Origin: an uncultured Gemmatimonadota bacterium
Lineage (GTDB): Bacteria > Gemmatimonadota > Gemmatimonadetes > Palauibacterales > KS3-K002
Direction of reading: 5' to 3'
Length of the DNA stretch: 64,000 nt
Assembly (NCBI GenBank): GCA_964348165.1
Contig: CAYGCC010000074.1
Location: forward strand, 5,128 to 69,127
A program made the position numbers and the translations under genes. Of this stretch, positions 5,152 through 35,512 are shown piece by piece; within the stretch, counting starts at the first letter, position 1; each line of letters starts with the position of its first letter. The notes beneath the pieces are model-generated. The model saw nothing but the letters and a program-made list of their open reading frames with translations. It ran no database searches and was not told where the DNA came from.

Positions 5152-6519
5152 GTGACACACATCCTCATAGTTGACGACGAAGGCAACATCCGGCGGATGA
5201 TCGCCAGCCTGCTCGGCGCCGAGGGCTACACCACCAGCGAGGCCGAGTCGGCTGAGGCGGGCATCAAGCGGATGTCCGCCGAGGAGCCTGACGCCGTGCT
5301 CCTCGACCTGGCGCTGCCCGGCATGAGCGGGCTCGAGGCGCTGGAGAAGATCGCCGAGGGCTGGCCTGAGGTGCCGGTCGTGATGATGAGCGGTCAGGCC
5401 ACGTTGGGCGACGCCGTTCAGGCGACGCGGCTAGGCGCGTTTCAGTTTCTCGAGAAGCCGCTCACACCCGAGGCCGTGTTGATCACGCTCAAGTCGGCGT
5501 TGGAGCTTCGACGTCAGCGCGACCTCAACCGCGCCCTCAAGCAGGAGCTCGAGCCCGGGCAGGAGCTGGTCGGTAAGAGCGCCGCGATCGAGGAGGTCCG
5601 CGCGCTGATTCGAAGGGTCGCGCCCACCGACTCGCGGGTCCTGGTTACCGGCGAGAGCGGGACGGGCAAAGAGCTGGTGGCGGGGGCCATCCACGCGCTG
5701 TCGAAGCGGGTCCGCGGACCGTTCGTGCGCATCAATTGCGCGGCGATTCCCCGTGAGCTGATCGAAAGCGAGATGTTCGGCCATGAGAAGGGTGCGTTCA
5801 CCGGAGCGACTCGCCAGCGGCGCGGCAAGTTCGAGCTGGCGGACGGTGGCACACTGTTCCTCGACGAGGTGGGCGACCTGAGCGCCGAGGCGCAGGCCAA
5901 GCTGCTGCGGTCCATCGAGGCGGGCGAGATCGAGCGCGTCGGGGGAGGCGAGCTGATCCCGGTGGACGTGCGTGCGGTCGCCGCCACCAACCACGACCTC
6001 GAGGCCGAGGTGGAGGCGGGCCGCTTCCGCGAGGACCTCTTCTTCCGCCTGCACGTAATGCCGATCCACATCGCGCCGCTTCGGGAGCGGGTGGAAGACA
6101 TCCCGCTGCTCGTCGCTCACTTCTACGAGCGCTATCGCCAACGACATGGTCTACGGCCGCCCACGCTGACCGACGACGCGCTGGCGGCGCTCGTCGCCTA
6201 CGATTGGCCGGGCAACGTCCGCGAGCTGGGCAACGCCGTCGAGCGCCTGATGATCCTCTATCCAGAGCGCCCGGTTGGCGCGGCAGAGATCGCCGGCGTC
6301 TTGCCCAGCGCACGGCGCGGCGAGCCGGTCCCGGTTGGCGACGGCGGCTCGCTGTCGGAGAAGCTGGAAGCCTATGAGCGCCGGCTGATTCAGGGCGCCC
6401 TCAGCGCCGCCGACGGCAACATCGCCGAGGCGGCGCGGCGACTGAGCACCGATCGGCCCAACCTTTACCGGCGGATGAAGCGTCTGGGGCTACGGCGCGA
6501 AGCGGCGGACGAGCGCTGA
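5152..6519 (+). CDS. Sigma54-dependent response regulator, NtrC/Fis family (REC + AAA+ sigma54 activation + HTH)
   Basis: N-terminal receiver with D54-like LLDLALPGMSG, Walker A GESGTGKE, GAFTGA motif, and a C-terminal Fis-type HTH NIAEAARRLSTDRPNLYRRMKRLG. Confidence 0.9.
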   Translation: MTHILIVDDEGNIRRMIASLLGAEGYTTSEAESAEAGIKRMSAEEPDAVLLDLALPGMSGLEALEKIAEGWPEVPVVMMSGQATLGDAVQATRLGAFQFLEKPLTPEAVLITLKSALELRRQRDLNRALKQELEPGQELVGKSAAIEEVRALIRRVAPTDSRVLVTGESGTGKELVAGAIHALSKRVRGPFVRINCAAIPRELIESEMFGHEKGAFTGATRQRRGKFELADGGTLFLDEVGDLSAEAQAKLLRSIEAGEIERVGGGELIPVDVRAVAATNHDLEAEVEAGRFREDLFFRLHVMPIHIAPLRERVEDIPLLVAHFYERYRQRHGLRPPTLTDDALAALVAYDWPGNVRELGNAVERLMILYPERPVGAAEIAGVLPSARRGEPVPVGDGGSLSEKLEAYERRLIQGALSAADGNIAEAARRLSTDRPNLYRRMKRLGLRREAADER

Positions 6520-9565: not shown

Positions 9566-12500
9566 ATGATCGCGATGCGTTACCGGCTTCTTAGCTGCTT
9601 AGCCGCTTGGTCCCTGCTCGTCACACCCAACCTAGAGGCGCAGGAGCCGGCCAAGAGCGAATGGGATGTGGAGGCGGACCACGGACCCTCGCGAACGCTC
9701 GAGTTCGAGACGGACGAGGGGACCTGGATGAACCTCGACGTGAGCCCGGACGGCCGCTGGGTCGTCTTCGACCTGCTGGGCGAGATCTACCGAGTTCCGA
9801 TTCGGGGTGGCGACGCCGAGCTGCTCTCCGGCGGCGTCTCTTACGAGCACCAGCCGCGCTATAGCCCCGACGGGCGGACCATCGCCTTCGTCAGCGATCG
9901 CAGCGGCATCGACAACATCTGGTTGATGGATGCCGACGGCTCGAATCGGCGACAGTTGACCAAAGAGAAAGACTCGCTTCCCACTGCCCCGGTCTGGGCG
10001 CCCGACGGTCAGTACGTGGTGGTGAAGCGGCACGTGCGGAGCACGCGCTCGCTGGGGGGTGGCGAGCTGTGGATGTATCACCTGCGGGGCGGCTCGGGGG
10101 TCAAGCTGGTCGAGAAGTTGAGCTTCACCTCCGAGCTAAACGAGCCGATGCTCTCCCCGGACGGCCGCTACGTCTATTACGTCTTCGCCGGTCCCTTCGA
10201 TTACAACCGCGACGTCCACGACGGGATCTTTCAGATCAATCGTTACGACCGGGAGAGCGGCGAGGTCGAGCCGGTAACCCGCGGGCCCGGCGGCGCGATC
10301 CGTCCCACGCCCTCACCCGACGGGCGCGCCGTCGCCTTCATCCGTCGCGTCGGGACAAACACCGTGCTCTTCATCCGCGATCTCGAGACCGGGGTCGACC
10401 GACCGCTCTTCAACGGACTGGAGAAGGACCAGATGGAGACCTGGACGGTGCACGGCGCCTACCCGGCCTTCGCCTGGACGCCCGACTCGCGGCGGATCGT
10501 GATCAACTTCGGCGGCAAGCTCTGGTCGCTGGACGCCGGCACGGGCCAGCCGGCGGCCGTCCCGTTCCGCGCGGCCGTCAGCCAGCGCATCACCGAGGCG
10601 CTGCATTTCGACTATCCGATCGCCGACGACTCCCTGCGCGCCCGCCTGATCCGCTGGCCGACGATCACCCCGGACGGCCGCCGGCTCGTCTTTCAGGCGG
10701 TGGGCCACATCTACCAGATGGGGCTGCCGAGCGGGAAGCCGCAGCGGGTCACCGACCTGGCGGCGCTGGAGTACGCGCCCGCCTTGTCGCCCGACGGCCG
10801 CTCGCTCACTTTCGTCACCTGGGACGACGACGAGGGCGGCCAAATCTGGCGCGTGCAGCTCCCGCGTCCCGGACAGCGGGCCCGGCCCCAGCAACTCACC
10901 GCCACGCCCAACCAGTACGCGAACCCGGTCTTCTCACCTGACGGCGGCCGCATCGCCTTCGTGCGCGGGAGCGGACGCGCCAATCGCGGCCAGGACCTCG
11001 GGGCCGAGCTGTACCTGGAGATCCACACGATGTCCGCCCAGGGCGGCGCGTCGCAGCTGGTCACCACCACGGCCAACCGGGGCGCGAACCGCCGCATGCC
11101 CCGGCCACGCTGGAGCGCCGACGGCACGCGGCTGCTCTATCAAGAAAGCGATGAGGACAAGACGTACCTGACCAGCGTCAAGCTGGATGGGACCGACAAG
11201 CGCCACCTGATGGAGAACGAGCGTGCGGAAGAGATCGTCCCGTCGCCGGACGGCAAGTGGGTCGCCTTCAAGGAGCTGCACAACGTGCACGTGGCGCCGC
11301 TACCGATGGCGGGCGCCGACCCGCTGAAGATCGAGGCCGGAGGCGCCGGCGTGCCGGTAAAGACGCTGACGCGATACGGCGGCGACTGGATCGACTGGTC
11401 GCGCGACAGCCGCAGCGTGAGCTATGTGCTCGGGCCGACGGTTTACCGTCATACGCTCGAAACGATCTTCGCCGAGGAAGAGGAGAGCGAGGAAGAAGAG
11501 GCGAGCGAATCGGAAGAAGAAACGAAGCCGAACCATGTCTTCGAGGGTGATCTCTTCGAGATCGCGCTCGCGGTTCCCAAGGCGCGTCCCAGCGGCGCAC
11601 TAGCGCTGACGGGCGCCCGCCTCATAACGATGCGCGGTGACGAGGTGATCGCCAACGGCACGATCGTCGTCGACGGGACCCGTATCGTGGCCGTGGGCGC
11701 GTCGAGCCAGGTGCAGGTGCCGCGCGGGGCCCGGGTCATCGATGTGGCCGGCAAGACGATCATCCCGGGACTGGTGGACGTGCACGCCCACATGGGTTAC
11801 TCCGCCCTCGACATCAATCCACAGCGCGAGTGGCGCTACTACGCCAACCTCGCCTACGGCGTCACCAGCACGCTCGACCCTTCGGCGAGCACGCAGGCGG
11901 TCTTCGCCCAGGCGGAGATGGTGGACGCCGGTCTGATGCTCGGGCCGCGCATCTACTCCACCGGGTTCATCCTCTACGGTGCCGAGAACGCCAACAAGGC
12001 GGTGATCAACAGCCTGGATGACGCCCGCTATCACATCCGCCGCCTCAAGGCGCAGGGCGCGACGGCGGTGAAGAGCTACAACCAGATGAGGCGCGACGTG
12101 CGCCAGTGGGTCATCGAGGCGGCACGCGAGGAAGGCATCCTGGTGGTGCCGGAAGGCGGCTCGATGTACCAGCAGAACATTAGCATGGTGCTGGACGGAC
12201 ATACCGGCATCGAGCACGCCATCCCGATCGCACCCCTCTACCGAGACGCGCTTCAGCTCGTCGGGCGCAGCCGCACCGGCTACACGCCCACGCTCGTCGT
12301 CGGGTATGGCGGCATCTGGGGTGAGAACTACTGGTATCAGCACTACGACGTATACGAGAACGAGCGGCTGTTACAGTTCACGCCGCGCGGCATCCTCGAC
12401 TCTCGCGCCCGCCGTCGAATGCTGATTCCCGAGGACGAATGGAACCACATCGAGCTGGCGAAGGCGGCGAAAGCGATCGTGGAAGCCGGCGGCCGCGTGC

Positions 12501-12820
12501 AGCTCGGCGCCCACGGCCAGCTGCAGGGGCTGGGCGCGCACTGGGAGCTCTGGATGTTCGAGCAGGGTGGGATGACGCCGCTGGAGGCGCTGCGGGCGGC
12601 GACGCTCTGGGGCGCCGAGTACGCCGGCCTCGGCCGTGACGTCGGCTCGCTGGAGCCCGGCAAGCTGGCCGACCTGGTGGTGCTCGACGCGAACCCGCTC
12701 GATGACCTGAAGAACAGCGAGCGGGTGCATAGGGTGATGAAAAACGGCTTTCTCTACGACGACTCGCTGAACGAGGTCTGGCCGCAACAGCGCCAGCGTC
12801 CGGCTTTTCGTTTTGAGTAA
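9566..12820 (+). CDS. TolB-like beta-propeller (PD40 repeats) fused to a metal-dependent amidohydrolase domain; secreted
   Basis: Signal peptide. At least 10 SPDGR/TPDGR-type PD40 repeats. Acidic linker EEEESEEEEASESEEETKP. C-terminal AGKTIIPGLVDVHAHMGY and VVLDANPLDD amidohydrolase signatures. Confidence 0.8.
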   Translation: MIAMRYRLLSCLAAWSLLVTPNLEAQEPAKSEWDVEADHGPSRTLEFETDEGTWMNLDVSPDGRWVVFDLLGEIYRVPIRGGDAELLSGGVSYEHQPRYSPDGRTIAFVSDRSGIDNIWLMDADGSNRRQLTKEKDSLPTAPVWAPDGQYVVVKRHVRSTRSLGGGELWMYHLRGGSGVKLVEKLSFTSELNEPMLSPDGRYVYYVFAGPFDYNRDVHDGIFQINRYDRESGEVEPVTRGPGGAIRPTPSPDGRAVAFIRRVGTNTVLFIRDLETGVDRPLFNGLEKDQMETWTVHGAYPAFAWTPDSRRIVINFGGKLWSLDAGTGQPAAVPFRAAVSQRITEALHFDYPIADDSLRARLIRWPTITPDGRRLVFQAVGHIYQMGLPSGKPQRVTDLAALEYAPALSPDGRSLTFVTWDDDEGGQIWRVQLPRPGQRARPQQLTATPNQYANPVFSPDGGRIAFVRGSGRANRGQDLGAELYLEIHTMSAQGGASQLVTTTANRGANRRMPRPRWSADGTRLLYQESDEDKTYLTSVKLDGTDKRHLMENERAEEIVPSPDGKWVAFKELHNVHVAPLPMAGADPLKIEAGGAGVPVKTLTRYGGDWIDWSRDSRSVSYVLGPTVYRHTLETIFAEEEESEEEEASESEEETKPNHVFEGDLFEIALAVPKARPSGALALTGARLITMRGDEVIANGTIVVDGTRIVAVGASSQVQVPRGARVIDVAGKTIIPGLVDVHAHMGYSALDINPQREWRYYANLAYGVTSTLDPSASTQAVFAQAEMVDAGLMLGPRIYSTGFILYGAENANKAVINSLDDARYHIRRLKAQGATAVKSYNQMRRDVRQWVIEAAREEGILVVPEGGSMYQQNISMVLDGHTGIEHAIPIAPLYRDALQLVGRSRTGYTPTLVVGYGGIWGENYWYQHYDVYENERLLQFTPRGILDSRARRRMLIPEDEWNHIELAKAAKAIVEAGGRVQLGAHGQLQGLGAHWELWMFEQGGMTPLEALRAATLWGAEYAGLGRDVGSLEPGKLADLVVLDANPLDDLKNSERVHRVMKNGFLYDDSLNEVWPQQRQRPAFRFE

Positions 12821-24823: not shown

Positions 24824-25297
24824 GTGAACCCTCTTCACCCCGAGGTTGTCCTGGTTTGGCGGGTGTCCGGCCTGCTCACCGCCCTTTTCCTCACGGCGAT
24901 CGTGGCGGCGCTGGAGGGCCTGTTTCTCACGCCCAAGGGCCTGGCGCTGATCGCGCCCCGGGTCATCGTGGGCTTGACCGCGCTCATCGTCATTCCCCTG
25001 GCGCTGATCTGGCCACGCCTGCGCTATCGCTATTGGCGCTGGCAGGTCGAGGCCGACCGCGTTCTGATCGAGAGGGGCGTGCTCTGGCGTTCGCGCTCGC
25101 TCATCCCGCGGGTTCGCATTCAACACGTAGACACCCGCAGCTCGCCCCTGCAGCGCTGGCTGGGGCTCAGCTCGCTGATCATCTACACGGCTGGCACCCG
25201 CGGGGCGGATGTTGAGATCCCCGGACTCGCCGCTGACGACGCCGAGGCGCTTCGCGAGCAGTTAGCGCGCCTGGAAGAGCTGGATGAACGTGGCTGA
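24824..25297 (+). CDS. YdbS-like bacterial PH-domain (bPH_2) membrane protein
   Basis: Two TM helices, then RVRIQHVDTRSSPLQRWLGLSSLIIYTAG, typical of bPH_2. Confidence 0.75.
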   Translation: MNPLHPEVVLVWRVSGLLTALFLTAIVAALEGLFLTPKGLALIAPRVIVGLTALIVIPLALIWPRLRYRYWRWQVEADRVLIERGVLWRSRSLIPRVRIQHVDTRSSPLQRWLGLSSLIIYTAGTRGADVEIPGLAADDAEALREQLARLEELDERG

Positions 25298-25395
25298 ACC
25301 GTCCGAACTCGGCGCACCCCAGGTTGGGGAAGAGTGGCGGCGGCTTCACCCGCTCACTCCGGCCCTGCGGTCGGTCCAGCTCACTGTGCCCGCCA
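25155..25395. repeat. Left copy of the roughly 240-bp imperfect direct repeat (ydbS 3' end + ydbT 5' start)
   Basis: Aligns by eye with 31222..31462 at roughly 9 of 10 positions, e.g. GGGGCTCAGCTCGCTGATCATCTACACGGCTGGCACCCGCGGGGCGGA. Confidence 0.7.
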
Positions 25396-25400
25396 CCCGG
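25284..25400 (+). pseudogene. 5' remnant of a ydbT-like gene (MNVAEPSELGAPQVGEEWRRLHPLTPALRSVQL...), disrupted by the cbb insertion
   Basis: Matches the N-terminus of the intact YdbT-like protein at 31350 (…TWQRLHPLTPALRSIQL), then diverges into Arg/Pro-rich sequence. Confidence 0.55.
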
Positions 25401-26017
25401 TGGCGCTCGGCCGGCTGGCGTACCGGGCCGATCCCGGCACGGTCACCTATCAGTCCGATAAGACGAGCGGGCCCATGGCGGGCACCGAGGACCGTGGACG
25501 CGCTCGAGTTCCTGGCACGGGTGAAGAGCCATATCCCCAACAAGGGCCAGGCCCGGTCCCGCCCGCGCAGTCGGGGGCTCTTGGGGTGGGCGCGGTTCGG
25601 CTCCTCACCGAGGGGGGCCCGGATTCCCCGGCTGCCGATCGCTGATCGGGCCCCCCGGATCCCCCGCTCCACGTCCCACAAGCACGCCCAACTCTGGCCT
25701 CGCTGGACGCGCTTGCGGCCCAACGCTACTTTGGGAGGCGCGATTGAATTCCAATGCCGATGCCGATGTGACTGCAGTTGACCCAGCCCCGGCGCCAGTT
25801 GGTGCTGCAATGCTTAGCGGACCGGGACGGCAAGAGAGGCCGGCGGACGGGCGGCCGCGGCACCGAATAGCCTTTCATCGCCGCGAACGATTATGCAGCC
25901 CGCCGGATGGCGTCACCCCACCCATTCGGGCGGGGACCACCCACCCGTACCGCCTGCCCCGTTTGGCGGTTGTGAGGTCGCCGCGAAACCGCCACTATGT
26001 TCTTGTGAATCTGTTCT

Positions 26018-26033
26018 TGTGAATCTGTTCACA
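26018..26033. promoter_or_regulatory. Perfect CRP/FNR-type palindrome TGTGAATCTGTTCACA
   Basis: TGTGA-N6-TCACA. A half-site copy lies 14 bp upstream, forming a tandem TTCTTGTGAATCTG x2. About 500 bp upstream of cbbP. Confidence 0.3.
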
Positions 26034-26538
26034 TGCCCGCTCTTGATCGAAGCCAACGCCCGCGCCGTAGGCCGAAAACGCGGCTCTGTGGGGGGCCGGG
26101 TGGGTTCCGATCGCGGAGCCGGAGGTGTTGATGCACGGCGCGCGCACTCTATCCACCGGTACGCGGTCAGCGAGGATACGCTGCGCACCGTCTTCTACGA
26201 GCCCGGGTGCCGGGGTGTCGCCCTGGGGGGCATGGTGCTCAAGCCGAATCTGGTGACCTCCGGGCTCGCGGACGCCGAGCGCTGGTATCCGGCCGGTGGC
26301 GGAGGAGAGGGTTTGCTGCCTCGCCACCGCGGTGCCGGCGGCGGTAGCGGAGATCGCCTTTCAAGGGCGGGCGCTCAAGCCCTGGAGAGGCGATGCGGCA
26401 ATGTACTCGAGTCCCCAAAAGCCCTCCTGCATTGGGCGAGACTCAACGTCACGGCTGGGCGAGGTCGTTATTCGGCCGAAATGGAACAGGCGGTGGCTTG
26501 ATGGCCGGCCCGGACGCGGATGCCGCGAGGAGCAGCTG

Positions 26539-27450
26539 ATGTCGAGGAAGCATCCCATCATCGCGGTAACCGGCTCATCCGGAGCCGGCACGACGACCGT
26601 CAAGGCGGCTTTTGAGCACATCTTCTTTCGGGAGAAGATCAAAGCAGTGATTATCGAGGGTGACAGCTACCACCGTTACGACCGGTACGAGATGCGGGAG
26701 GCCATCGCGGTGGCCGCCGCGGAGGGGAAGAGCCTGAGCCATTTCGGGCCGGAAGCAAACCACCTCGACAAGCTGGACGCTCTCTTCGAACAGTACGGCA
26801 GAACCGGCACGGGCGAGCACAGGCATTACCTCCACAACGAAGAGGAGGCCAAGCCCTACGGTCAAAAACCCGGCACGTTCACTCCGTGGGAGCCGATCCC
26901 TGACGGGACGGATCTTCTGATCTACGAAGGCCTCCATGGTGCAGTCATTACCGAGACGGTGAATGTCGCGAGACACGCCGACCTGTTGATCGGCGTGGTC
27001 CCGATCGTCAACCTCGAATGGATACAAAAGATTCACCGAGACACCGAAACGCGCGGCTACCGACCCGAGGACGTGACCGAAACCATCCTGCGCCGGATGC
27101 CGGACTATGTACACTATATCGTTCCCCAGTTCTCGGTCACGGACATCAACTTCCAACGTGTGCCAACGGTGGACACGTCGAACCCGTTCATCGCCCGCGA
27201 TATCCCAACTCTGGACGAGAGCTTCGTCGTCATCCGGTTCCGGGATCCGACAAAGTTCGATGTCGATTTCCCTTACCTCCTGGCGATGCTGCACGACTCT
27301 TTCATGTCGCGGCGCAACTCGATCGTGGTGCCTGGGGGCAAATGGGGGGTGGCGATGGAGATTATCCTCGCCCCCATCATCAAGCGGTTGGTCGAAGGCA
27401 GCGGCGGAGTTCGCGGTGACCGCGCGGAAGCGCTCTCCGCTTCCCGGTGA
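26539..27450 (+). CDS. cbbP: Phosphoribulokinase
   Basis: MSRKHPIIAVTGSSGAGTTTV P-loop and EGDSYHRYDR. Bacterial PRK size (about 300 aa). Confidence 0.9.
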   Translation: MSRKHPIIAVTGSSGAGTTTVKAAFEHIFFREKIKAVIIEGDSYHRYDRYEMREAIAVAAAEGKSLSHFGPEANHLDKLDALFEQYGRTGTGEHRHYLHNEEEAKPYGQKPGTFTPWEPIPDGTDLLIYEGLHGAVITETVNVARHADLLIGVVPIVNLEWIQKIHRDTETRGYRPEDVTETILRRMPDYVHYIVPQFSVTDINFQRVPTVDTSNPFIARDIPTLDESFVVIRFRDPTKFDVDFPYLLAMLHDSFMSRRNSIVVPGGKWGVAMEIILAPIIKRLVEGSGGVRGDRAEALSASR

Positions 27451-27577
27451 GTCGGCGGACGGATTCGATGCCCGCCGCGCTTTGCAGGATCTGCCCTGAG
27501 GCGTCACCGCCAAAAGGGTCGGGTAACCACGTCCTACTTATCGCCACAGTCGGATCTTTTATGGAAGGGAGCTTTGA

Positions 27578-29041
<1,464 letters not shown>

Positions 29042-29056
29042 GGAGGGTCCGTTTCC

Positions 29057-29500
29057 ATGAGCACCGGACTTCGAATCACCCAGGGAACCTTCTCCTACCT
29101 GCCCGATCTCAGCGACGAGGAGATATACGCCCAGATTCAATACGGGATCGACCAGCGGTGGGCAGTGGCGATCGAGTACACCGACGACCCGCATCCCCGC
29201 AACGTGTACTGGGACATGTGGGGGATGCCGATGTTCGACCTGAAAGACGCCTCGGGTGCAGTGATGGAGGTCAACCGCTGCCGGGATACCTTCTCGAACC
29301 ACTACATCCGGGTGACCCTGTACAATCCCAAGCTGACCAAGCAGACCACAGGGCTGCAGTTCCTCGTGAACCGCCCCGAGCACGAGCCAGGCTTCCGGCT
29401 CGACCGCCGGGAGGCGCACGACCGGGTCGTCCACTACACCTTGCACTCTTACGCGGCCGAGCGCCCCCATGGGGACCGCTACCGTGAGGACGGCCGCTAA
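29057..29500 (+). CDS. cbbS: RuBisCO small subunit (red-type)
   Basis: [23 protein letters not shown] ... WGMPMFDL ... YIRVTLY, with a C-terminal extension typical of red-type small subunits. Confidence 0.9.
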
Positions 29501-29512
29501 AAGGTATTATCC

Positions 29513-30646
29513 ATGAGCAGCCAAAAGACTCCCGCCGACAAGGGGCCTCGACGGCCCGGTACGGAGGTTCCCGTCGCACCGCCGATGGGCCTGGGGATGG
29601 AATCCAAACCCAAAGGGATCCTGGAGGTGGAGGCCGAAGGCGAATTCGCCAAGCTGGCCGACCCGCTCAACGAGATTCCCGACGATCTCGAGATCCGCGT
29701 CGACGATGTCCTACGAGACAGCCGCGTGGCGGAGGTCCTTGAGTCCTTCGACCGGGAGTTGGTGGCGCTGAAACAGGTCAAGCGGCGTATCCGCGAGATC
29801 GCGGCGCTCCTTCTGATCGAGCGGCTGCGCCGCTCGATCAACCTCGAGGCGGAGCCGCCCACGCTCCACATGTGTTTCACCGGCAACCCCGGCACCGGAA
29901 AGACCACCGTCGGGATGATGATGGGCAAGATCCTCTTCAAGCTCGGTTACGTCAGGAAGGGCCACCTCGTGGCGGCGGGCCGGGAGGACTTGGTCGGACA
30001 GTACGTGGGCCACACCGCGCCCAAGACCCGCGAGGTCGTCAAGCGGGCCATGGGTGGGGTGTTGTTCATCGACGAGGCCTACAACCTGTACCGGCTCGAC
30101 AACGAGCGCGACTATGGGCAAGAGGCGGTAGAGCTCTTGCTTCAGCTGATGGAGAACGAGCGCGACAACCTGGTGGTGATCATGGCCGGGTACAAGGACA
30201 AGATGGAGCGCTTCTTCAGCGACGTCCCTGGCATCAGGTCGCGCATCGCCCATCATATCGACTTCCCCGACTACTCGTTGGAGGAACTGATTCAGATCGG
30301 CGCGCTGATGCAGAAGAAGCAACGCTATCGGTTCTCTCCCGCAGCCGAGAAGGCCTTTGAGAAGTTGCTCAAGCAAGGCATCTCCCATCCCGGTTTCGCC
30401 AACGGACGCAGTGTGCGAAACGCCCTCGACCACGCACGCCTGCGCCAGGCGATCCGGCTGTTCAATACCGCCGAGCGTGGCGGGAAGCTGACCAAAGCCG
30501 ATCTGGTGACCATCGAGGAGGCGGACGTGCTCGAGATCCGGGCGTTCGCGGAGGGCATTCCAGCGGCGGATCGAGGCTCGAGCGACCTAGCCCGCGCCGA
30601 CGAGCGGCGCCCGGATTTCAAAGGCTCGGGGACGCCAGGTGACTGA
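29513..30646 (+). CDS. cbbX: CbbX, AAA+ red-type RuBisCO activase
   Basis: Walker A GNPGTGKTT, Walker B VLFIDEAYNL, and sensor region MAGYKDKM. N- and C-terminal extensions beyond the canonical length of about 310 aa. Confidence 0.9.
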   Translation: MSSQKTPADKGPRRPGTEVPVAPPMGLGMESKPKGILEVEAEGEFAKLADPLNEIPDDLEIRVDDVLRDSRVAEVLESFDRELVALKQVKRRIREIAALLLIERLRRSINLEAEPPTLHMCFTGNPGTGKTTVGMMMGKILFKLGYVRKGHLVAAGREDLVGQYVGHTAPKTREVVKRAMGGVLFIDEAYNLYRLDNERDYGQEAVELLLQLMENERDNLVVIMAGYKDKMERFFSDVPGIRSRIAHHIDFPDYSLEELIQIGALMQKKQRYRFSPAAEKAFEKLLKQGISHPGFANGRSVRNALDHARLRQAIRLFNTAERGGKLTKADLVTIEEADVLEIRAFAEGIPAADRGSSDLARADERRPDFKGSGTPGD

Positions 30647-30872
30647 ACAGCCGGAAATCGTCATCGCGCGTGTGGTCCTGGGGCGCAAGGACCCCACCAC
30701 CCTCGTCGGGTTTCAATGGACCGGGGTCGACATCGCCGGGCTCTACGACCCCGATCAGGCGCTGATGCTGGGGGCGGTCTGGGAGGGCGACGAGCTGGTC
30801 ACCTACAACCTGGCGGCGCTGGAACACAACGTTCGAACCCAGAACGACAGGCTGCTGGAGGATCCCGATTAG
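30639..30872 (+). CDS. Small hypothetical protein (77 aa) translationally coupled to cbbX
   Basis: A GTG start overlaps the cbbX TGA (GTGACTGA). Confidence 0.4.
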   Translation: MTEQPEIVIARVVLGRKDPTTLVGFQWTGVDIAGLYDPDQALMLGAVWEGDELVTYNLAALEHNVRTQNDRLLEDPD

Positions 30873-30881
30873 CCGACGCTT

Positions 30882-31163
30882 TCATCCACCCGATTCGGGT
30901 GCGGCCACTTCGGCCCCAGGAAGCTGATCGATTAACCCTTCAGCCCCGTAGGTCTGATAATTCCGCCGGATCTCGTAGAACTGCTGTCGACTGTAGCCCA
31001 TGATCCGGCACTCCTTGCTCACGTTCCCCAGCTCCTGCGCCAGCTGTAGCAGACTGAGCTTCCGTCGTGCTATCTCTCCCTTCTGGACGGTGGTCATCTC
31101 CTCCTCCGGGTCTTGAGTGGATTCGGCAACTCTCAAGGAACCCCGGCGAAGGCAGTTGGCCAC
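30882..31163 (-). mobile_element. IS-family transposase N-terminal (HTH) remnant
   Basis: …IARRKLSLLQLAQELGNVSKECRIMGYSRQQFYEIRRNYQTYGAEGLIDQ resembles the N-terminal HTH of IS481-like transposases. The ORF stops after 93 aa. Confidence 0.5.
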
Positions 31164-31221
31164 CGTCTTCTGTTTAGCCTATTGTGTCAGGTGAATACCG
31201 TCACACTTCACACCTTAGTCC

Positions 31222-31462
31222 GCGGTTGGGGCTTAGCTCGCTGATCATCTACACGGCGGGCACCCGCGGGGCGGACGTGGAGATTCCCGGGCTCGCCGCC
31301 GACGACGCCGAGGCGCTTCGCGAACAGTTAGCGCGCCTGGAAGAGCTGGATGAACGCGACTGACGATCACGAGCTACCCGCGAGCGGTGTGGAAGGCCCG
31401 GAGACGTGGCAGCGCCTGCACCCGCTGACGCCGGCCCTGCGATCGATCCAGCTGGTCTACGC
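31222..31462. repeat. Right copy of the roughly 240-bp imperfect direct repeat (ydbS 3' remnant + ydbT start)
   Basis: Encodes …LGLSSLIIYTAGTRGADVEIPGLAADDAEALREQLARLEELDERD*, matching the YdbS C-terminus at 25160..25297. Confidence 0.7.
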
Positions 31463-32924
31463 CCTGGCCATCGCGGCGGTCGCCTCGTCGGTGGGAGTGG
31501 GTTCGACCGTTCTGATCCTGATCGTGGCGGCGGCCGTCATCGCCGCCTGGATCACACTCGCCTATCTCCGCTTCCGCTATTGCGTCACCGAGGACAGTCT
31601 GATCATCCAGCACGGCGTGCTTGTGCGAAGGCGGCGCGTAATCCCCCGCTCGCGGATTCAAAACGTGGACCTGCGGGCCGGGTTGCTGAACCAGCTGCTC
31701 GGCGTCGTGGTGGCCAGGATCGAGACCGCGGGTGGCGAGGCCAGCGAGGCGACGCTTAGCGTCGTGGCGCGGAGCGAGGCGACACGGCTGCGCCGAACCC
31801 TGGTGGCCAGCGCCCTGGGAAGCGCGCCCGGCCTTACACCGGACGCCGGGGCGGTCGAACCATCGGCGATCTTGGAAGGCGCCACCGCGCTCCCAGCTGA
31901 CCGGATCGTTCGCCGATCATCGCTGCTCGACCTCGTGCTTGCCGGCGCCACATCCAACCGGGCCGGCGTGCTATTCGCCGCACTGCTGGGCGGCGATTAC
32001 CTGTTCGAGTTCATGCCCACCGATTGGCTCCTGCGGCGTTTCGTCGCGCCGGAGCTCGTGCAGCCGGACGCCGCGGTTAGGGCGCTGATCCAAACGGCCG
32101 AGCGGGACGTTCAGGCGTTTCTCACGGGGTTGGTGGTCGTGTCGATCTTCTTCGCGCTAGCCGGCTGGGGCCTGTCGATCGCCCTGAGCGTGGTCCGTTA
32201 TTACGACTTCACGCTGGTCGCGGGAGGAGGCGATCTGCAGGTCAGCTATGGACTGTTCACCCGTCGCGAGAAGGGATTCCGACGCAACCGCGTTCAGAAC
32301 GTGCAGATCGAGGAGCCGATCCTGCGGCGATGGCTCGGGCTCGCCACGATGCGCGTTCAGACCGCCGGCTACGGTCCGGGGATGAAGGCCGATGAACGGG
32401 TAGAGACGCTCACCCCCATCGCGCGACGTGGCGAGATCCCCCTCTATCTCAGCGAAGTGCTCCCGGGCCTCGTATGGGAGAGCAGCGAGTGGCGACCGTC
32501 TCACCCACGGGCACGACGCCGGTTGTTCATCCGCCGGGCGCTGGTCGTCCTGCTGGCAAGCGGCGCACTGACACTCCTCACACCATACGGACTCGCCTTG
32601 CTGGCCGCGCTGCTGCCGGCCTGGTTGCTCGCCGCGGCCCACTACCGCCACCTGGGCCACGCCCGCGCCGGCGACTACGTGCTGGTTCGCGAGGGACTCT
32701 GGAACCGCCGCACTTACATCGTGCCGGTGCGCAAGATTCAGGCGCTCCATTTGCGGCAGTCCCCGCTTCAACGGCGTCTGGGACTGGGGACGCTGGTCAT
32801 GGACACAGCCGGTAGCCCGCACGAATGGCACCCGCCCCGCTCCATCGATTTGGGAACCGATTACGGGCGTGAGCTGATGCATGGCCTGGCGACCAGCGTC
32901 AGCGTCACAGGCCTCAACTTCTGA
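31350..32924 (+). CDS. YdbT-like membrane protein with three bPH_2 domains
   Basis: Repeated …RIQNVDLRAGLLNQLLGVV…, …RVQNVQIEEPILRRWLGLAT…, and …IQALHLRQSPLQRRLGLGT… modules, each preceded by TM pairs. Confidence 0.75.
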   Translation: MNATDDHELPASGVEGPETWQRLHPLTPALRSIQLVYALAIAAVASSVGVGSTVLILIVAAAVIAAWITLAYLRFRYCVTEDSLIIQHGVLVRRRRVIPRSRIQNVDLRAGLLNQLLGVVVARIETAGGEASEATLSVVARSEATRLRRTLVASALGSAPGLTPDAGAVEPSAILEGATALPADRIVRRSSLLDLVLAGATSNRAGVLFAALLGGDYLFEFMPTDWLLRRFVAPELVQPDAAVRALIQTAERDVQAFLTGLVVVSIFFALAGWGLSIALSVVRYYDFTLVAGGGDLQVSYGLFTRREKGFRRNRVQNVQIEEPILRRWLGLATMRVQTAGYGPGMKADERVETLTPIARRGEIPLYLSEVLPGLVWESSEWRPSHPRARRRLFIRRALVVLLASGALTLLTPYGLALLAALLPAWLLAAAHYRHLGHARAGDYVLVREGLWNRRTYIVPVRKIQALHLRQSPLQRRLGLGTLVMDTAGSPHEWHPPRSIDLGTDYGRELMHGLATSVSVTGLNF

Positions 32925-33214
32925 CGGCCGGCGATCGAGAGGTGCCGGAATGGCCCGCGAGAATGGGGCGATCACGGCAAGTCGCTCTGGTTCGCCGAGA
33001 TACGGCCGCCGGGCCCGTCGCCCTTGGGGTTGCGCCACACGCCCCGGATGGTATGCTTTAACGACTTTGAGGGCCCCCACCCTCCTGATCCCCCGCCTCT
33101 GCTCCAGCTCAGGAAGCGATGGCGCCCCCATTTGAAGCAGGAGCCGCCGCGGACGCAAAACGTTCGCGTCCCGGGCCGACCCGACGACACCGAGGCTGGT
33201 CTCCGCCCATCACC

Positions 33215-35512
33215 ATGGCTGACGCCCGAGAAACGCACCGAACTGGGTTCGACTTCGCGACCGCCATCCTGGAGGCATGCGCCGCGCTGATCGTGGTGCT
33301 CGATCGTGACGGCCGCATCGTCCGCTTCAACCGGGCCTGCGAACGGCTCACCGGATTTTCCAGTCGCGAAGTGGAGGGCAAGCCGGTTTGGGAAGTCTTA
33401 CTTCTTCCCGAGGAGGTCGGAGGAGTCAAGAGAGTGTTCGCCGAGCTGCGCGACGGCCGCTTTCCCAACAAGCACGAGAATTGCTGGCTGACCAAGAACG
33501 GCGATCGCCGTCTGATCTCTTGGACCAACACCGCTGTCGTGGCCAGCGATGGCTCGGTCGACTACGTGATCGGAACCGGCATCGACGTCACAGATCACAG
33601 GCGGACCGAGGAGGAGCTGGCAAAGTTCCGGCTCGGCATCGAGCGCAGCGGCGAGATCATTTTTTTGACCGATCGGGAGGGACATATCCTGTACGTGAAC
33701 CCTGCCTTCGAGCGCATCTATGGCTTCAGCAAAGAGGAGGTGCTGGGACGAACGCCGCGCATCCTGAAGTCGGGTCTACACGATCGGGAGGTCTACAAGC
33801 AGATCTGGGAGATGCTGCTGGCCAAAGAGACCGTATCCAGCGAGATCGTCAACAAGACGAAAGACGGGCGGCTGCTCACGATGTCCAGCTCCGCCAATCC
33901 GGTTCTGGACGAAGAGGGCAACATCGTCGGGTTTCTAGCGATCCAGCGCGACATCACCGAGAGGAAGATGACAGATCGCGCGCTGAGGGAGAGCGAGGAG
34001 CGCCTGCGCACGCTGATGGAAAAAGTGCCGGACGGCGTCGGCGTGCTGGCCACCGACGGGCGTATCCTTTACGCCAACCCGGCCATGGGCGCGTTGCTCG
34101 GATACACTACCGACCAGATGTTAGGCCGGCGAGTGACAGACTTTCAGCATCCCGAGGACCGGGGCCGCGCGGCCGATCGCATCAAGTCACTCCTCCGGGG
34201 TGGCCCCGAGAGCCCGGCGCAGTATCGCCTGATCCATAGGGACGGCAGCGTCGTGACCTCGGAGATCACCTCACGGGTGATCGAGTTCGAGGGCGAGCCC
34301 GCTCTGCTCAGCACGGTCCGCGACCTCACCGAGCGCATGGAGCTGGAGGAGCAGTTACGCCAGGCCCAGAAGATGGAGGCAGTGGGTCAGCTGGCAGGCG
34401 GAATGGCTCATGACTTCAACAATCTCCTGACCGTGGTGCAGGTCAACACCGAGCTCCTCGCCGATAGGCTGCCCGAGGCCGACGGTCAGGTGACCGATGA
34501 CATTGAAGAACTGAAAGCGGCCGTCGCCCGCGGTAAGAAGCTGATCGAGAAGCTCCTCGCCTTCAGTCGGCGCGAGGAGCTCAAGATCGAGCCACTCGAC
34601 CTGCGGAAGCTGATCACCGACTTCGAGCCGACCCTGCGCCGCTTACTGCCCGAGAACATCGATATCCAGATCGACCCGCCCGACGGGCTCGATAAGGTCC
34701 TCGCCAGCGCCGGGTCAGTCGAACAGATCGTGATGAACCTGGCCACCAACGCACGCAACGCCATGCCCGAGGGCGGCCAGCTCCGCCTGGCGCTTTGGCC
34801 GACTTACCTGGAGGCCGCGGACTGGTTCGCCACCGGACGGACCGTTCCCGGCGCATTCGTTTGTCTGGCCGTAAGCGACACCGGCATCGGCATGGACGAG
34901 CTGACGCAGGCACGCTTGTTCGAGCCCTTCTTCACGACCCGGCGCAGCTCCGGCGGCACGGGTCTGGGCATGGCGGTCGTGTACGGGCTGGCCAAGCAGC
35001 TTGGCGGCCACGTACACGTCTACAGCGAGCTGGGCCAAGGCACGACGATCAAGGTTTACCTGCCCGTGGCCGCGCCCGACTTCGGCGAGGCGCCGCCCGT
35101 CGGCGAGACGGCGATAGAGGTACGAGGCGGAAGTGAGACGATCCTCGTGGCGGAAGACGAGCCAGCGCTGAGGCGAGCGGCCCGGCGGATCCTCGAGCGC
35201 CTGGGTTACCAGGTCCTGCTGGCCGCGGACGGCGATGAGGCGTTGAGAGTATTCGAGGCGAACCAAGATCGAATCGATTTGATCGTCACTGACGTGGTCA
35301 TGCCGAAGCGCGGCGGCCGCGCTCTATATCAAGCGCTGCGTGAACGCGGCGCTCAAGTCCCTTTCCTTTTTGCCAGCGGCTACACGGCGGGCGATGTGGA
35401 GGAGAGCGCTCAGCTCGATCCCGGGCTTCCCTTCCTGGCCAAGCCGTGGACGTTGAGCGAACTGGCCCAGAAGATCCGACAGGTTCTCGACGCCAAAGGA
35501 GTCGAGAGCTAG
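33215..35512 (+). CDS. Hybrid sensor histidine kinase (multiple PAS domains - HisKA - HATPase_c - REC)
   Basis: At least three PAS-like modules. H-box GGMAHDFNNLL. G-boxes DTGIGMD and GTGLGMAVV. C-terminal receiver with DLIVTDVVMPKRGG. Confidence 0.85.
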   Translation: MADARETHRTGFDFATAILEACAALIVVLDRDGRIVRFNRACERLTGFSSREVEGKPVWEVLLLPEEVGGVKRVFAELRDGRFPNKHENCWLTKNGDRRLISWTNTAVVASDGSVDYVIGTGIDVTDHRRTEEELAKFRLGIERSGEIIFLTDREGHILYVNPAFERIYGFSKEEVLGRTPRILKSGLHDREVYKQIWEMLLAKETVSSEIVNKTKDGRLLTMSSSANPVLDEEGNIVGFLAIQRDITERKMTDRALRESEERLRTLMEKVPDGVGVLATDGRILYANPAMGALLGYTTDQMLGRRVTDFQHPEDRGRAADRIKSLLRGGPESPAQYRLIHRDGSVVTSEITSRVIEFEGEPALLSTVRDLTERMELEEQLRQAQKMEAVGQLAGGMAHDFNNLLTVVQVNTELLADRLPEADGQVTDDIEELKAAVARGKKLIEKLLAFSRREELKIEPLDLRKLITDFEPTLRRLLPENIDIQIDPPDGLDKVLASAGSVEQIVMNLATNARNAMPEGGQLRLALWPTYLEAADWFATGRTVPGAFVCLAVSDTGIGMDELTQARLFEPFFTTRRSSGGTGLGMAVVYGLAKQLGGHVHVYSELGQGTTIKVYLPVAAPDFGEAPPVGETAIEVRGGSETILVAEDEPALRRAARRILERLGYQVLLAADGDEALRVFEANQDRIDLIVTDVVMPKRGGRALYQALRERGAQVPFLFASGYTAGDVEESAQLDPGLPFLAKPWTLSELAQKIRQVLDAKGVES

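Follow-up and report, generated by a model that had tools for sequence, protein, structure and literature searches.

The 1.25-kb interval between a ydbS-like host gene and cbbP of a Gemmatimonadota bacterium was found to be a mosaic of five pieces that includes no intact gene. This interval is probably a scar: mobile elements would have brought a cbb island of ~6 kb (delta-fba, cbbP, cbbL, cbbS and cbbX) into the chromosome, and decay followed. On this reading, a textbook CRP-type palindrome within it would be the tip of an insertion sequence (IS). The DNA analysed, here called the window, is a single stretch of 64 kb. Judged from its sequence, the part ahead of the acquired cbbP is debris of mobile elements and of a broken aldolase gene, and as the palindrome is most likely an IS tip, its presence is largely ordinary.

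Gene remnants between ydbS and cbbP

The ydbS-like gene (24824..25297, + strand; Pfam bPH_2, E=5.5e-22, one domain) is the last intact gene ahead of the island. It shares its strand with cbbP and ends a co-directional array (ABC transporter, OpuAC, orf89, ydbS). A direct repeat of ~230 bp brackets the cbb island, its left copy (25155..25381) consisting of the 3'-end of ydbS and the first ~33 codons of ydbT, and its right copy (31219..31453) of a ydbS 3' fragment and the start of an intact ydbT-like gene (31350-32924; three Pfam bPH_2 domains). Repeat search and pairwise alignment gave 92% identity between 25158-25297 and 31224-31363, and 85% for a second segment, 25334-25381 against 31406-31453. 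The ydbT' fragment at 25284-25381 is thus a duplicated 5' piece of the ydbT-like host gene.

The next piece is a C-terminal fragment of an IS91-family transposase (Y2_Tnp, HUH; 25394..25560, + strand), interrupted by a frameshift near 25491-25495 and missing the catalytic parts. After repair of the frameshift, it matched PF04986 (Y2_Tnp) with 22.2 bits against a cut-off of 20.9 (E=1.6e-4, positions 120-171 of the 183 in the profile). As tblastn of this short fragment against plasmids gave no match, it is the least secure of the remnants named here. No oriIS or terIS end was recognisable, and no IS91-like relative for a comparison of ends was found among the fetched loci or the plasmids. It is followed by about 270 bp of decayed DNA (25561..25891) that gave no signal with Pfam, tblastn, blastn or Rfam and is missing from the sister contig L085; a trivial repeat, ATGCCG in 2.5 copies, occurs within it at 25754-25768. 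A block of 142 bp (25892..26033, + strand), common to L085 at 93% identity, ends in the palindrome.

The last recognisable gene remnant is a class-I fructose-bisphosphate aldolase pseudogene (26043..26501, + strand) that corresponds to residues ~152-340 and retains the stop codon (26499-26501). Intact class-I aldolases, of ~340 aa with a full-length PF00274 domain, served as the benchmark, and only the 3' half of such a gene is present, spread over three frames with at least three frameshifts and some ~35 codons deleted internally. In tblastn it was detected in two frames (E=1e-13 and 3e-6) by the intact aldolase of L009, the one relative in which fba-cbbP is shared, and the repaired translation matched PF00274 with 75.7 bits (E=3.9e-21). 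Upstream, the similarity extends to IEANARAVGR, which matches TEANAHALAR in L009. Gene callers predicted a 202-aa ORF across the leader (25893-26501), which is spurious.

An earlier note on this DNA had described a non-coding leader. This holds in that no intact gene is present, but the region is made of gene fragments and is not featureless non-coding DNA. The fallback offered in the same note, decayed remnant DNA, was borne out, as the aldolase pseudogene, the IS91-family tail and the duplicated host-gene fragment occupy most of the stretch. Of the remnants that the note thought a tblastx-type comparison might reveal, the aldolase was recovered by tblastn, and no LysR remnant was detected in the leader.

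The cbb genes and the probable loss of cbbR

The cbbP gene (26539..27450, + strand), preceded by GAGGAG at 26527-26532, is intact and encodes a phosphoribulokinase of 303 aa (Pfam PRK, E=2.8e-65). Its closest relatives outside its own cluster share at most 80% identity and are mostly gammaproteobacterial. In a collection of 5.8 billion clusters the best one outside the 90% cluster is 80% identical, and the best GTDB representative 76%. Downstream on the + strand are cbbL (27578-29041; Pfam RuBisCO_large), cbbS (29057-29500; Pfam RuBisCO_small), cbbX (29513-30646; Pfam AAA+AAA_lid_6) and, following cbbX, a conserved ORF of 77 aa (30639-30872). These four are intact and 96-99% identical in the relatives L083 and L084. 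The only informative loci were L083-L086, among which L085 alone covers the leader; L083 and L084 end 31 nt ahead of cbbP and therefore lack it. Between lineages, the core from the 3' half of cbbP through cbbX is ~99% identical, against differences of 11-15% in the genes on its flanks, a sign of recent exchange.

Canonical cbb operons, such as those of Cupriavidus, Rhodobacter and Xanthobacter, are controlled by a divergently transcribed LysR regulator, CbbR. In L009, a LysR gene is likewise divergent from a class-I fba-cbbP-tkt-rpe cluster. The island shares with these systems the gene order fba-cbbP and the presence of the RuBisCO genes cbbL, cbbS and cbbX. However, cbbR, the 5' half of fba and the intergenic control region are missing, and the island is reduced to cbbP, cbbL, cbbS, cbbX and the 77-aa ORF. 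The absence of cbbR, recorded in the earlier note, extends to the whole window, in which the best tblastn match to a CbbR-like LysR protein had E=0.65 and a Pfam search of ~50 ORFs was negative. It is most likely that cbbR and the native promoter were lost along with the 5' half of the aldolase gene.

Metagenome-assembled genomes (MAGs) of Gemmatimonadota with type IC/ID RuBisCO, rbcS and phosphoribulokinase have already been described (PMC10581226). The present case agrees with them in its Gemmatimonadota host and in combining form-I RuBisCO and cbbX with a phosphoribulokinase. That survey concerned gene content, whereas the insertion site, the IS scars and the lack of cbbR are described here.

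The search for a promoter was negative on the + strand of the leader, where no sigma-70-like promoter was found and nothing convincing was seen for sigma-54. At the motif itself, the sole promoter-like site belongs to the minus strand; it was created by a short duplication described below and points away from cbbP. With no promoter located, the route by which cbbPLSX is transcribed is a matter of conjecture, and we infer only that transcription may now come from host DNA or IS-derived DNA lying upstream. One candidate route is read-through out of the ydbS operon, which is co-directional, as no + strand terminator was predicted between ydbS and cbbP. Alternatively, a putative promoter in the IS-derived 142-bp block could drive the operon, as IS481 ends supply such promoters. 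A structured RNA leader or riboswitch was considered and rejected: Rfam at E<=1 returned one sub-threshold sRNA match (27.6 against 50 bits), and the minimum free energy of 25892-26120 had a z-score of -1.0.

The palindrome and IS481-type ends

The palindrome TGTGAATCTGTTCACA (26018-26033, + strand) is an exact TGTGA-N6-TCACA and, as the earlier note had stated, a perfect one; it is the sole exact occurrence in the window, for which 0.01 would be expected (100 dinucleotide-preserving shuffles). The half-site copy seen upstream by the same note proved to belong to a tandem duplication of 14 bp without mismatch, in which TTCTTGTGAATCTG occupies 26000-26013 and again 26014-26027, reported by TRF at 25998..26030 on the + strand with period 14, 2.4 copies, 100% match and a score of 66. 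This duplication, which supplies the additional TGTGA half-site, is confined to the window lineage, the unit being single copy in L085. Its presence in three more assemblies of the same strain (L001, L002 and L086) shows that it did not arise in assembly. That the palindrome is so rare is accounted for by its apparent origin, a mobile-element end of 34% G+C within DNA of 69% G+C, and needs no regulatory explanation.

The reference for this origin is found at the other end of the island, where a 5' fragment of an IS481-family IS (30875..31212, - strand) retains the left inverted repeat (IRL), the 5' UTR and ~75 codons from the start of the HTH domain. The fragment matched Pfam HTH_28 (E=9e-10) and shares 82% amino acid identity with the HTH part of HTH+rve elements; one of its homologues carries the NCBI name 'IS481 family transposase'. 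Its IRL spans 31176-31212, with the tip at 31212, and contains GGTGAATACCGTCACA at 31190-31205. The IRL and UTR are homologous to those of an intact copy, L090, and 18 nt are identical to its IRL without a gap or mismatch; an nhmmer profile of foreign inverted repeats (IRs) matched 31185-31204 (E=0.0011). Across independent IS copies the IR consensus is CAGGTGAAT/CAGGTCATT...ACA.

The last ~38 nt of the 142-bp block form an IS481-like terminal inverted repeat with its tip, TTCACA, at 26033, such that the right half-site of the palindrome is the very tip of the repeat. The left motif of L085 and the right IR of L083 share 25 identities over 30 positions and the same terminal CTTCACA, with a Smith-Waterman (SW) score of 18, and the left motif of L085 scored 16 against the right-end IR of the window; the background maxima were 14.5 over 2.44 Mb of unrelated loci and 13 over the rest of the window. 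The window's own copy scored 9 against IS481-type IRs, which is not above background, and a profile built from distant IS only found the right-end IR and missed the left motifs of both the window and L085. The assignment therefore rests on the L085 orthologue and on the lineage's own right-end IR. As the L085 motif is significantly similar to an IS481-family IR, the perfect palindrome would be a lineage-specific derivative of an IS end; from sequence comparison, the "CRP-type" palindrome is most likely a mutated insertion-sequence tip.

Between this tip and the point where the aldolase codons become recognisable there are at most 12 nt, and the other side of the supposed insertion is gone. No rve/DDE transposase remnant rose above noise beside the left motif, in a search where HTH matches at E<=1e-5 alone are meaningful. 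Of the right-end transposase, the N-terminal HTH part is all that is left, and both IS ends are remnants, not active elements. A miniature inverted-repeat element (MITE) was rejected as a description of the 142-bp block, which is devoid of terminal inverted repeats in either lineage.

The ends of IS481 in Bordetella pertussis are known to make outward and hybrid promoters (Pout, Pin read-out; PMC6161684). The right end of the island resembles this element in carrying an IS481-type IRL, 5' UTR and HTH fragment, and the left motif, at a gene break-point and facing the downstream operon, has the placement of an IS481 copy that activates its neighbours. Unlike canonical IS481 ends, the left one keeps ~38 nt of IR-like DNA with an internal deletion of 5-7 nt and no transposase; no -10 element was found at the proper distance from its terminal TTCACA.

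In L085, positions 289-421 align with 25892-26038 of the window minus the 14-bp duplicated unit. L085 thus keeps the 142-bp block, with neither the IS91 remnant, the aldolase remnant nor the duplication, and its orthologous motif is GGTGAATCTCTTCACA, in which one half-site is mismatched (GGTGA) and has no tandem copy. The motif differs between the two lineages at 4 of 29 nt in this single orthologous leader, compared with 6.7% for the rest of the block, 7.6% for the adjacent 5' half of cbbP (6.7-7.9% over the flanking leader and this half of cbbP), and 14% for the IS481 pseudogene fragment. By this one comparison, on which the statement that the motif is not conserved rests, it appears to change at least as fast as neutral DNA, and the changes in the window lineage shifted it toward the consensus (GGTGA to TGTGA). 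Its position relative to cbbP is not conserved either, as 505 nt separate the palindrome from the start of cbbP in the window but ~85 nt do so in L085. No further copy of the block was found by blastn against the window and 93 loci, nor by an exact 24-mer scan of the metagenome collection, which returned the source contig only. Of note, the block is kept in both lineages although both of its flanks have been remodelled. Such retention could mean that the block is needed, for example as a promoter, and it was counted against the explanation as an IS scar.

Competing explanations and island history

TGTGA-N6-TCACA is the Escherichia coli CRP consensus, and CRP/FNR operators have a fixed position relative to the promoter (for example, centred near -41.5 or -61.5). 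The earlier note had suggested that the operon may be wired to a CRP/FNR-family regulator, such as a redox or cAMP-type signal, rather than to CbbR. On this reading, a host CRP/FNR-family protein would bring a cAMP-, redox- or O2-type input to the cbbR-less operon, the tandem duplication adding a second half-site for cooperative binding. Both half-sites and their spacing match exactly in a sequence so rarely expected, the site precedes, in the same orientation, an operon deprived of its usual regulator, nothing else of the leader than the 142-bp block is common to both lineages, and the window-lineage changes run toward the consensus. A working operator is nevertheless unlikely. The site is imperfect and unduplicated in L085 and diverges at a rate at least neutral, its distance to cbbP varies, no + strand promoter was predicted nearby, the flanking consensus bases of CRP sites (AAA..TTT) are absent around it, and descent from an IS end accounts for the motif independently. 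No CRP/FNR gene was found in the window (best tblastn E=0.71; none by Pfam in ~50 ORFs). The note had also looked to other occurrences of the palindrome, which are not enriched in the window: sites with at most two mismatches number 11 against 13.3 expected, a weak test, and the sole other site with at most one mismatch falls within the inverted repeat of the right-end IS. We do not believe that a dedicated operator of the CRP/FNR type is involved, and a CRP/FNR wiring of the operon is possible but unsupported. On a further reading, a dead IS481-like tip would have been exapted, with GGTGA becoming a perfect TGTGA-N6-TCACA that was then partly duplicated as a new CRP/FNR-type input (energy or redox) for the operon. 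We regard this as highly improbable; if true, it would be regulatory rewiring from transposon debris, caught in the act, in an acquired Calvin-cycle operon.

The presence of a transposase tail ~470 bp upstream on the same strand raises the question of whether the palindrome is the oriIS end of the IS91-family element. Ends of this type have subterminal palindromes and adjoin a GTTC/CTTG target tetranucleotide, and both GTTC and CTTG occur within 26000-26033. In IS91 the oriIS is at the right end, beyond tnpA, the functional right end is 82 bp, and members of the family are known to capture genes next to them by one-ended transposition (PMC13181058); the orientation of the Y2_Tnp fragment fits this arrangement. 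However, 470 bp is long for an 82-bp end, L085 keeps the motif block without the IS91 remnant, the motif is significantly similar to IS481-type IRs instead, and no intact relative of the IS91-like element was retrieved to compare, so that an oriIS seems very unlikely. A chance palindrome in an AT-rich donor spacer, that is, an old intergenic or promoter remnant with neither a mobile-element nor a regulatory role, would agree with the background-level score of the window copy, with its being missed by the distant-IS profile, and with the block having no other copy in the metagenome collection. It is rendered improbable by the similarity of the L085 orthologue to the lineage's IS481-type IR, well above the 2.4-Mb background, and by the position of the motif, which coincides with the point where the aldolase gene is truncated.

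Taking the palindrome as an IS481-type tip, the following order of events in the history of the island is inferred. The original layout would have been canonical, with a divergent LysR/CbbR gene followed by class-I fba and then cbbP. An IS481-family element may have inserted in fba, or been rearranged there, near codon 150, after which the IS body, the 5' half of fba, cbbR and the CbbR-dependent promoter would have been lost, leaving the IS tip adjoining the 3' half of fba. From an ancestral motif like that of the sister lineage, ...ACTGTGTTCAGGTGAATCTCTTCACA, a 14-bp slipped-strand duplication and a change of CAGG to CTTG in the window lineage would have made the perfect TGTGA-N6-TCACA and its extra half-site by accident.

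The case is a cautionary example, in that a textbook-perfect regulator palindrome turned out, on the most probable reading, to be an IS end at the break-point of a pseudogene. It is reasonable to ask how, in the absence of CbbR, an operon of this kind is expressed. For autotrophy in the Gemmatimonadota, the locus documents a minimal cbbP-cbbLSX island that has lost cbbR and sits within the host ydbS-ydbT operon, with IS remnants and the diverged copies of the 230-bp repeat on either side.

Composition of the leader and the island

The leader between the host ydbS-like gene and cbbP is, as judged from its sequence, a mosaic of gene fragments, unlike clean non-coding DNA. A direct repeat of about 230 bp (25155-25381 and 31219-31453, 85–92% identical) brackets an island of about 6 kb, and contains the 3' end of the ydbS-like gene and about 33 codons from the start of the ydbT-like one, so that the island sits within the host ydbS-ydbT operon, on the same strand. 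The repeat, whose two copies differ by 8–15%, is far too long and too diverged to be a transposition target duplication. It suggests the integration of DNA already bearing the ydbS/ydbT junction of a related strain, possibly by a route such as single-crossover insertion of a circular intermediate. The left repeat copy of L085, a sister-lineage contig, is 92% identical to the right copy in the window versus 81% to the left one.

Within these boundaries, a putative C-terminal fragment of an IS91-family Y2 transposase, frameshifted (25394-25560; Pfam score 22.2 bits, just over the cut-off), is the weakest assignment in the leader, and 25561-25891 matched nothing searched. A 142-bp block common to the window and L085 (25892-26033) precedes a pseudogene (26043-26501) that retains only the 3' half of an aldolase gene (class-I fructose-bisphosphate type) and is disrupted by three or more frameshifts and the loss of about 35 internal codons; its repaired translation matched PF00274 (75.7 bits, E=3.9e-21). 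The earlier note, whose fallback reading was decayed DNA with a possible aldolase remnant, was right in this respect. The 202-aa ORF of the gene callers (25893-26501), spanning palindrome and pseudogene, is a high-G+C artefact.

cbbP starts at 26539, with GAGGAG ahead of it, and is followed by cbbL, cbbS, cbbX and a 77-aa ORF (30639-30872). This ORF has an 8-nt overlap with the end of cbbX, had no Pfam match, is intact with 94% protein identity in the related contig L083, and may be a genuine small gene that accompanies cbbX. There follows, on the minus strand, an IS481-family element of which the 5' end is present (30875-31212), with the inverted repeat, the 5' UTR and about 75 HTH codons; it shares 82% protein identity with HTH+rve elements, one of which is named IS481 family by NCBI, and its inverted repeat and UTR can be aligned to the intact copy in L090. 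In L088, an unrelated metagenome contig, the left end of an IS481-type element is tandemly doubled (2728-2763 and 2884-2919) as two identical copies of the IRL plus about 120 nt, so end duplications do occur in this group.

The host assignment agrees with a 1084-aa PD40/amidohydrolase protein in the window, whose best named relatives are in Gemmatimonadetes MAGs, and with diderm features (Omp85, heptosyltransferase, sigma-54 activator). The cbb genes lie in a G+C trough (61–64%, versus 66–70% in the DNA to the left), and beyond the organism's own cluster the relatives closest to cbbP reach only 76–80% identity and are mostly gammaproteobacterial; the earlier note's assumption that the operon was acquired is thus borne out. 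Gemmatimonadota MAGs with type IC/ID RuBisCO, rbcS and PRK have been described previously (PMC10581226).

The palindrome and its candidate origins

The TGTGA-N6-TCACA site reported earlier was confirmed as TGTGAATCTGTTCACA at 26018-26033, the sole exact match in the window (0.01 expected from shuffles), and the half-site copy upstream proved to belong to a perfect tandem duplication of 14 bp (two units of TTCTTGTGAATCTG, 26000-26027; 2.4 copies at 25998-26030 by TRF), present also in three other assemblies of the same strain. The duplication creates a minus-strand sigma-70-like site (25994-26023: TTCACA, 18 nt, CATAGT) that faces the decayed DNA, away from cbbP, and is missing in the L085 version.

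A mismatch-tolerant search disclosed one other near-perfect site, GGTGAATACCGTCACA at 31190-31205, within the right-end IS481-type inverted repeat. Read to the tip, independent intact IS copies end in ...ACTGTCAGGTCATTACCATCTCTGTACA or ...ACTGTCAGGTGAATACCGTCTCAGCACA, the lineage's own right end is GCCTA(T/C)TGTGTCAGGTGAAT(A/G)CCGTCACACTTCACA, and the L085 left motif is GCCACTGTGTTCAGGTGAATCTCTTCACA. The latter, aligned with the L083 right-end repeat over 30 positions, is identical at 25, those leading into the tip among them, and its Smith-Waterman scores of 18 against the L083 right end and 16 against that of the window exceed the background maxima of 14.5 (2.44 Mb of unrelated loci) and 13 (rest of the window). 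The orthologous window motif has drifted (CAGG to CTTG, one spacer base altered, duplication gained), and alone scores 9, no longer above background. At most 12 nt separate the tip, TTCACA at 26033, from the point where aldolase codons become recognisable, and the 38 nt surrounding the tip have 34% G+C inside DNA of 69%; both fit an IS end. A profile built solely from distant IS copies matched the right end (E=0.0011) and neither left copy, which is a real weakness of the IS-end reading.

A pure chance palindrome is unlikely, given the above-background match of the L085 motif to IS481-type repeats and the placement of the motif at the aldolase break-point. Derivation from an IS91 oriIS would agree with the orientation of the Y2 fragment, the GTTC/CTTG tetranucleotides and the subterminal palindromes known at IS91 ends (PMC13181058), but in L085 the motif is retained although no IS91 remnant is present, and the likeness to IS481-type repeats is the stronger signal.

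The earlier note had proposed that a CRP/FNR-type regulator may control the operon in place of CbbR. The match to the consensus is perfect, and the changes in the window lineage brought the motif closer to it; however, position and conservation fail, since the motif is imperfect and unduplicated in L085 (GGTGAATCTCTTCACA) and lies about 85 nt from cbbP there versus 505 nt in the window, and neither enrichment nor regulator availability within the window lends support. The proposal is therefore not supported, and a working CRP/FNR operator is improbable; that transposon debris was exapted into a CRP-type site is rated lower still. The absence of cbbR holds within the window: tblastn found no gene or remnant of either type (best E=0.65), the queries being CRP/FNR sequences and the CbbR-like LysR of a related locus. 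Pfam scans of about 50 window ORFs gave no CRP and no LysR, and identified an NtrC-type sigma-54 activator (5152-6519, 20 kb upstream of the island) and a hybrid histidine kinase that combines three PAS domains with a receiver (33119-35512, just downstream of ydbT). No other obvious genes for signal transduction lie near the island; the kinase, 85% identical in L083, belongs to the host flank, outside the island.

Divergence between sister lineages

Two more proteins fall in the cbbP cluster, and their contigs (L083-L086) represent the same strain or sister lineages; a different leader version is covered by L085 only (Logan SRR25893905). In L085 the ydbS/ydbT junction is followed by 84 unmatched nt, a block 93% identical to window 25892-26038 and then directly by window 26462 onward, without the IS91 remnant or the 14-bp duplication and with almost no aldolase remnant. 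Of the 29 positions in the motif region, 4 differ, whereas divergence is 6.7% over the remainder of the block, 7.9% for the proximal leader, 7.6% across nucleotides 1-462 of cbbP and 14% for the IS481 pseudogene fragment; the perfect palindrome and extra half-site are thus lineage-specific, and nothing in these alignments suggests purifying selection on either.

Across 26508-35512 the divergence from L083, L084 and L085 is strongly mosaic. The 3' half of cbbP, cbbL, cbbS and cbbX are about 99% identical between lineages, the leader and the opening 462 nt of cbbP (where 35 of the gene's 37 differences fall, with 17 amino-acid changes) about 92–93%, and the flanking IS481 fragment, ydbT and histidine kinase 85–89%, which implies a recombination break-point inside cbbP at about 27000-27330. 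By sequence comparison, this pattern also implies that the RuBisCO core was recently exchanged among, or swept through, related lineages of Gemmatimonadota.

L083 and L084, independent Logan assemblies made from different runs, both begin at window 26508, exactly 31 nt upstream of cbbP, presumably one assembler k-mer if Logan uses k=31; the break is consistent with a de Bruijn graph branch, several leader variants coexisting in those samples. Their ribosome-binding site is AGGAGG, versus GAGGAG in the window. In L001 (GCA_012974965.1) no full-length RuBisCO large subunit was called at 11000-12600, whereas the window has an intact 487-aa cbbL; the two match across cbbL in separate pieces with gaps, which points to assembly errors in GCA_012974965.1, not gene decay.

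History and expression of the operon

The leader is a scar of an ordinary, already known kind, left by mobile-element-mediated gene acquisition. Among 80 fetched cbbP loci, only L009, from an Actinomycetes MAG, clearly matched the aldolase remnant; there a divergent LysR gene is followed by class-I fba, cbbP, tkt and rpe. In the simplest history, the island would have arrived with cbbR and an intact fba, an IS481-type element would have inserted in fba or rearranged there, and deletions would have taken the IS body, the 5' half of fba, cbbR and the CbbR-dependent control region, more debris being kept in the window lineage and further trimming occurring in that of L085.

No intrinsic terminator was predicted between ydbS and cbbP, and no sigma-70-like or sigma-54-like promoter on the plus strand of the leader. 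Transcription could plausibly read through from the host genes that run in the same direction (ABC transporter, OpuAC, orf89, ydbS), or start from a promoter inside the 142-bp block of IS origin, the sole leader segment kept in both lineages. IS481 ends supply outward and hybrid promoters (PMC6161684); no -10 element suitably spaced from the terminal TTCACA was found. At the other end of the island, the surviving IS481-type IRL and 5' UTR (within 30875-31349) face outward to the ydbT-like gene, which is intact, starts at 31350 and is now separated from ydbS by the island. In Bordetella IS481, the outward promoter Pout reads out through this IRL/5' UTR end (PMC6161684), and by analogy ydbT may now rely on transcription that is IS-derived or that reads through from the cbb operon.
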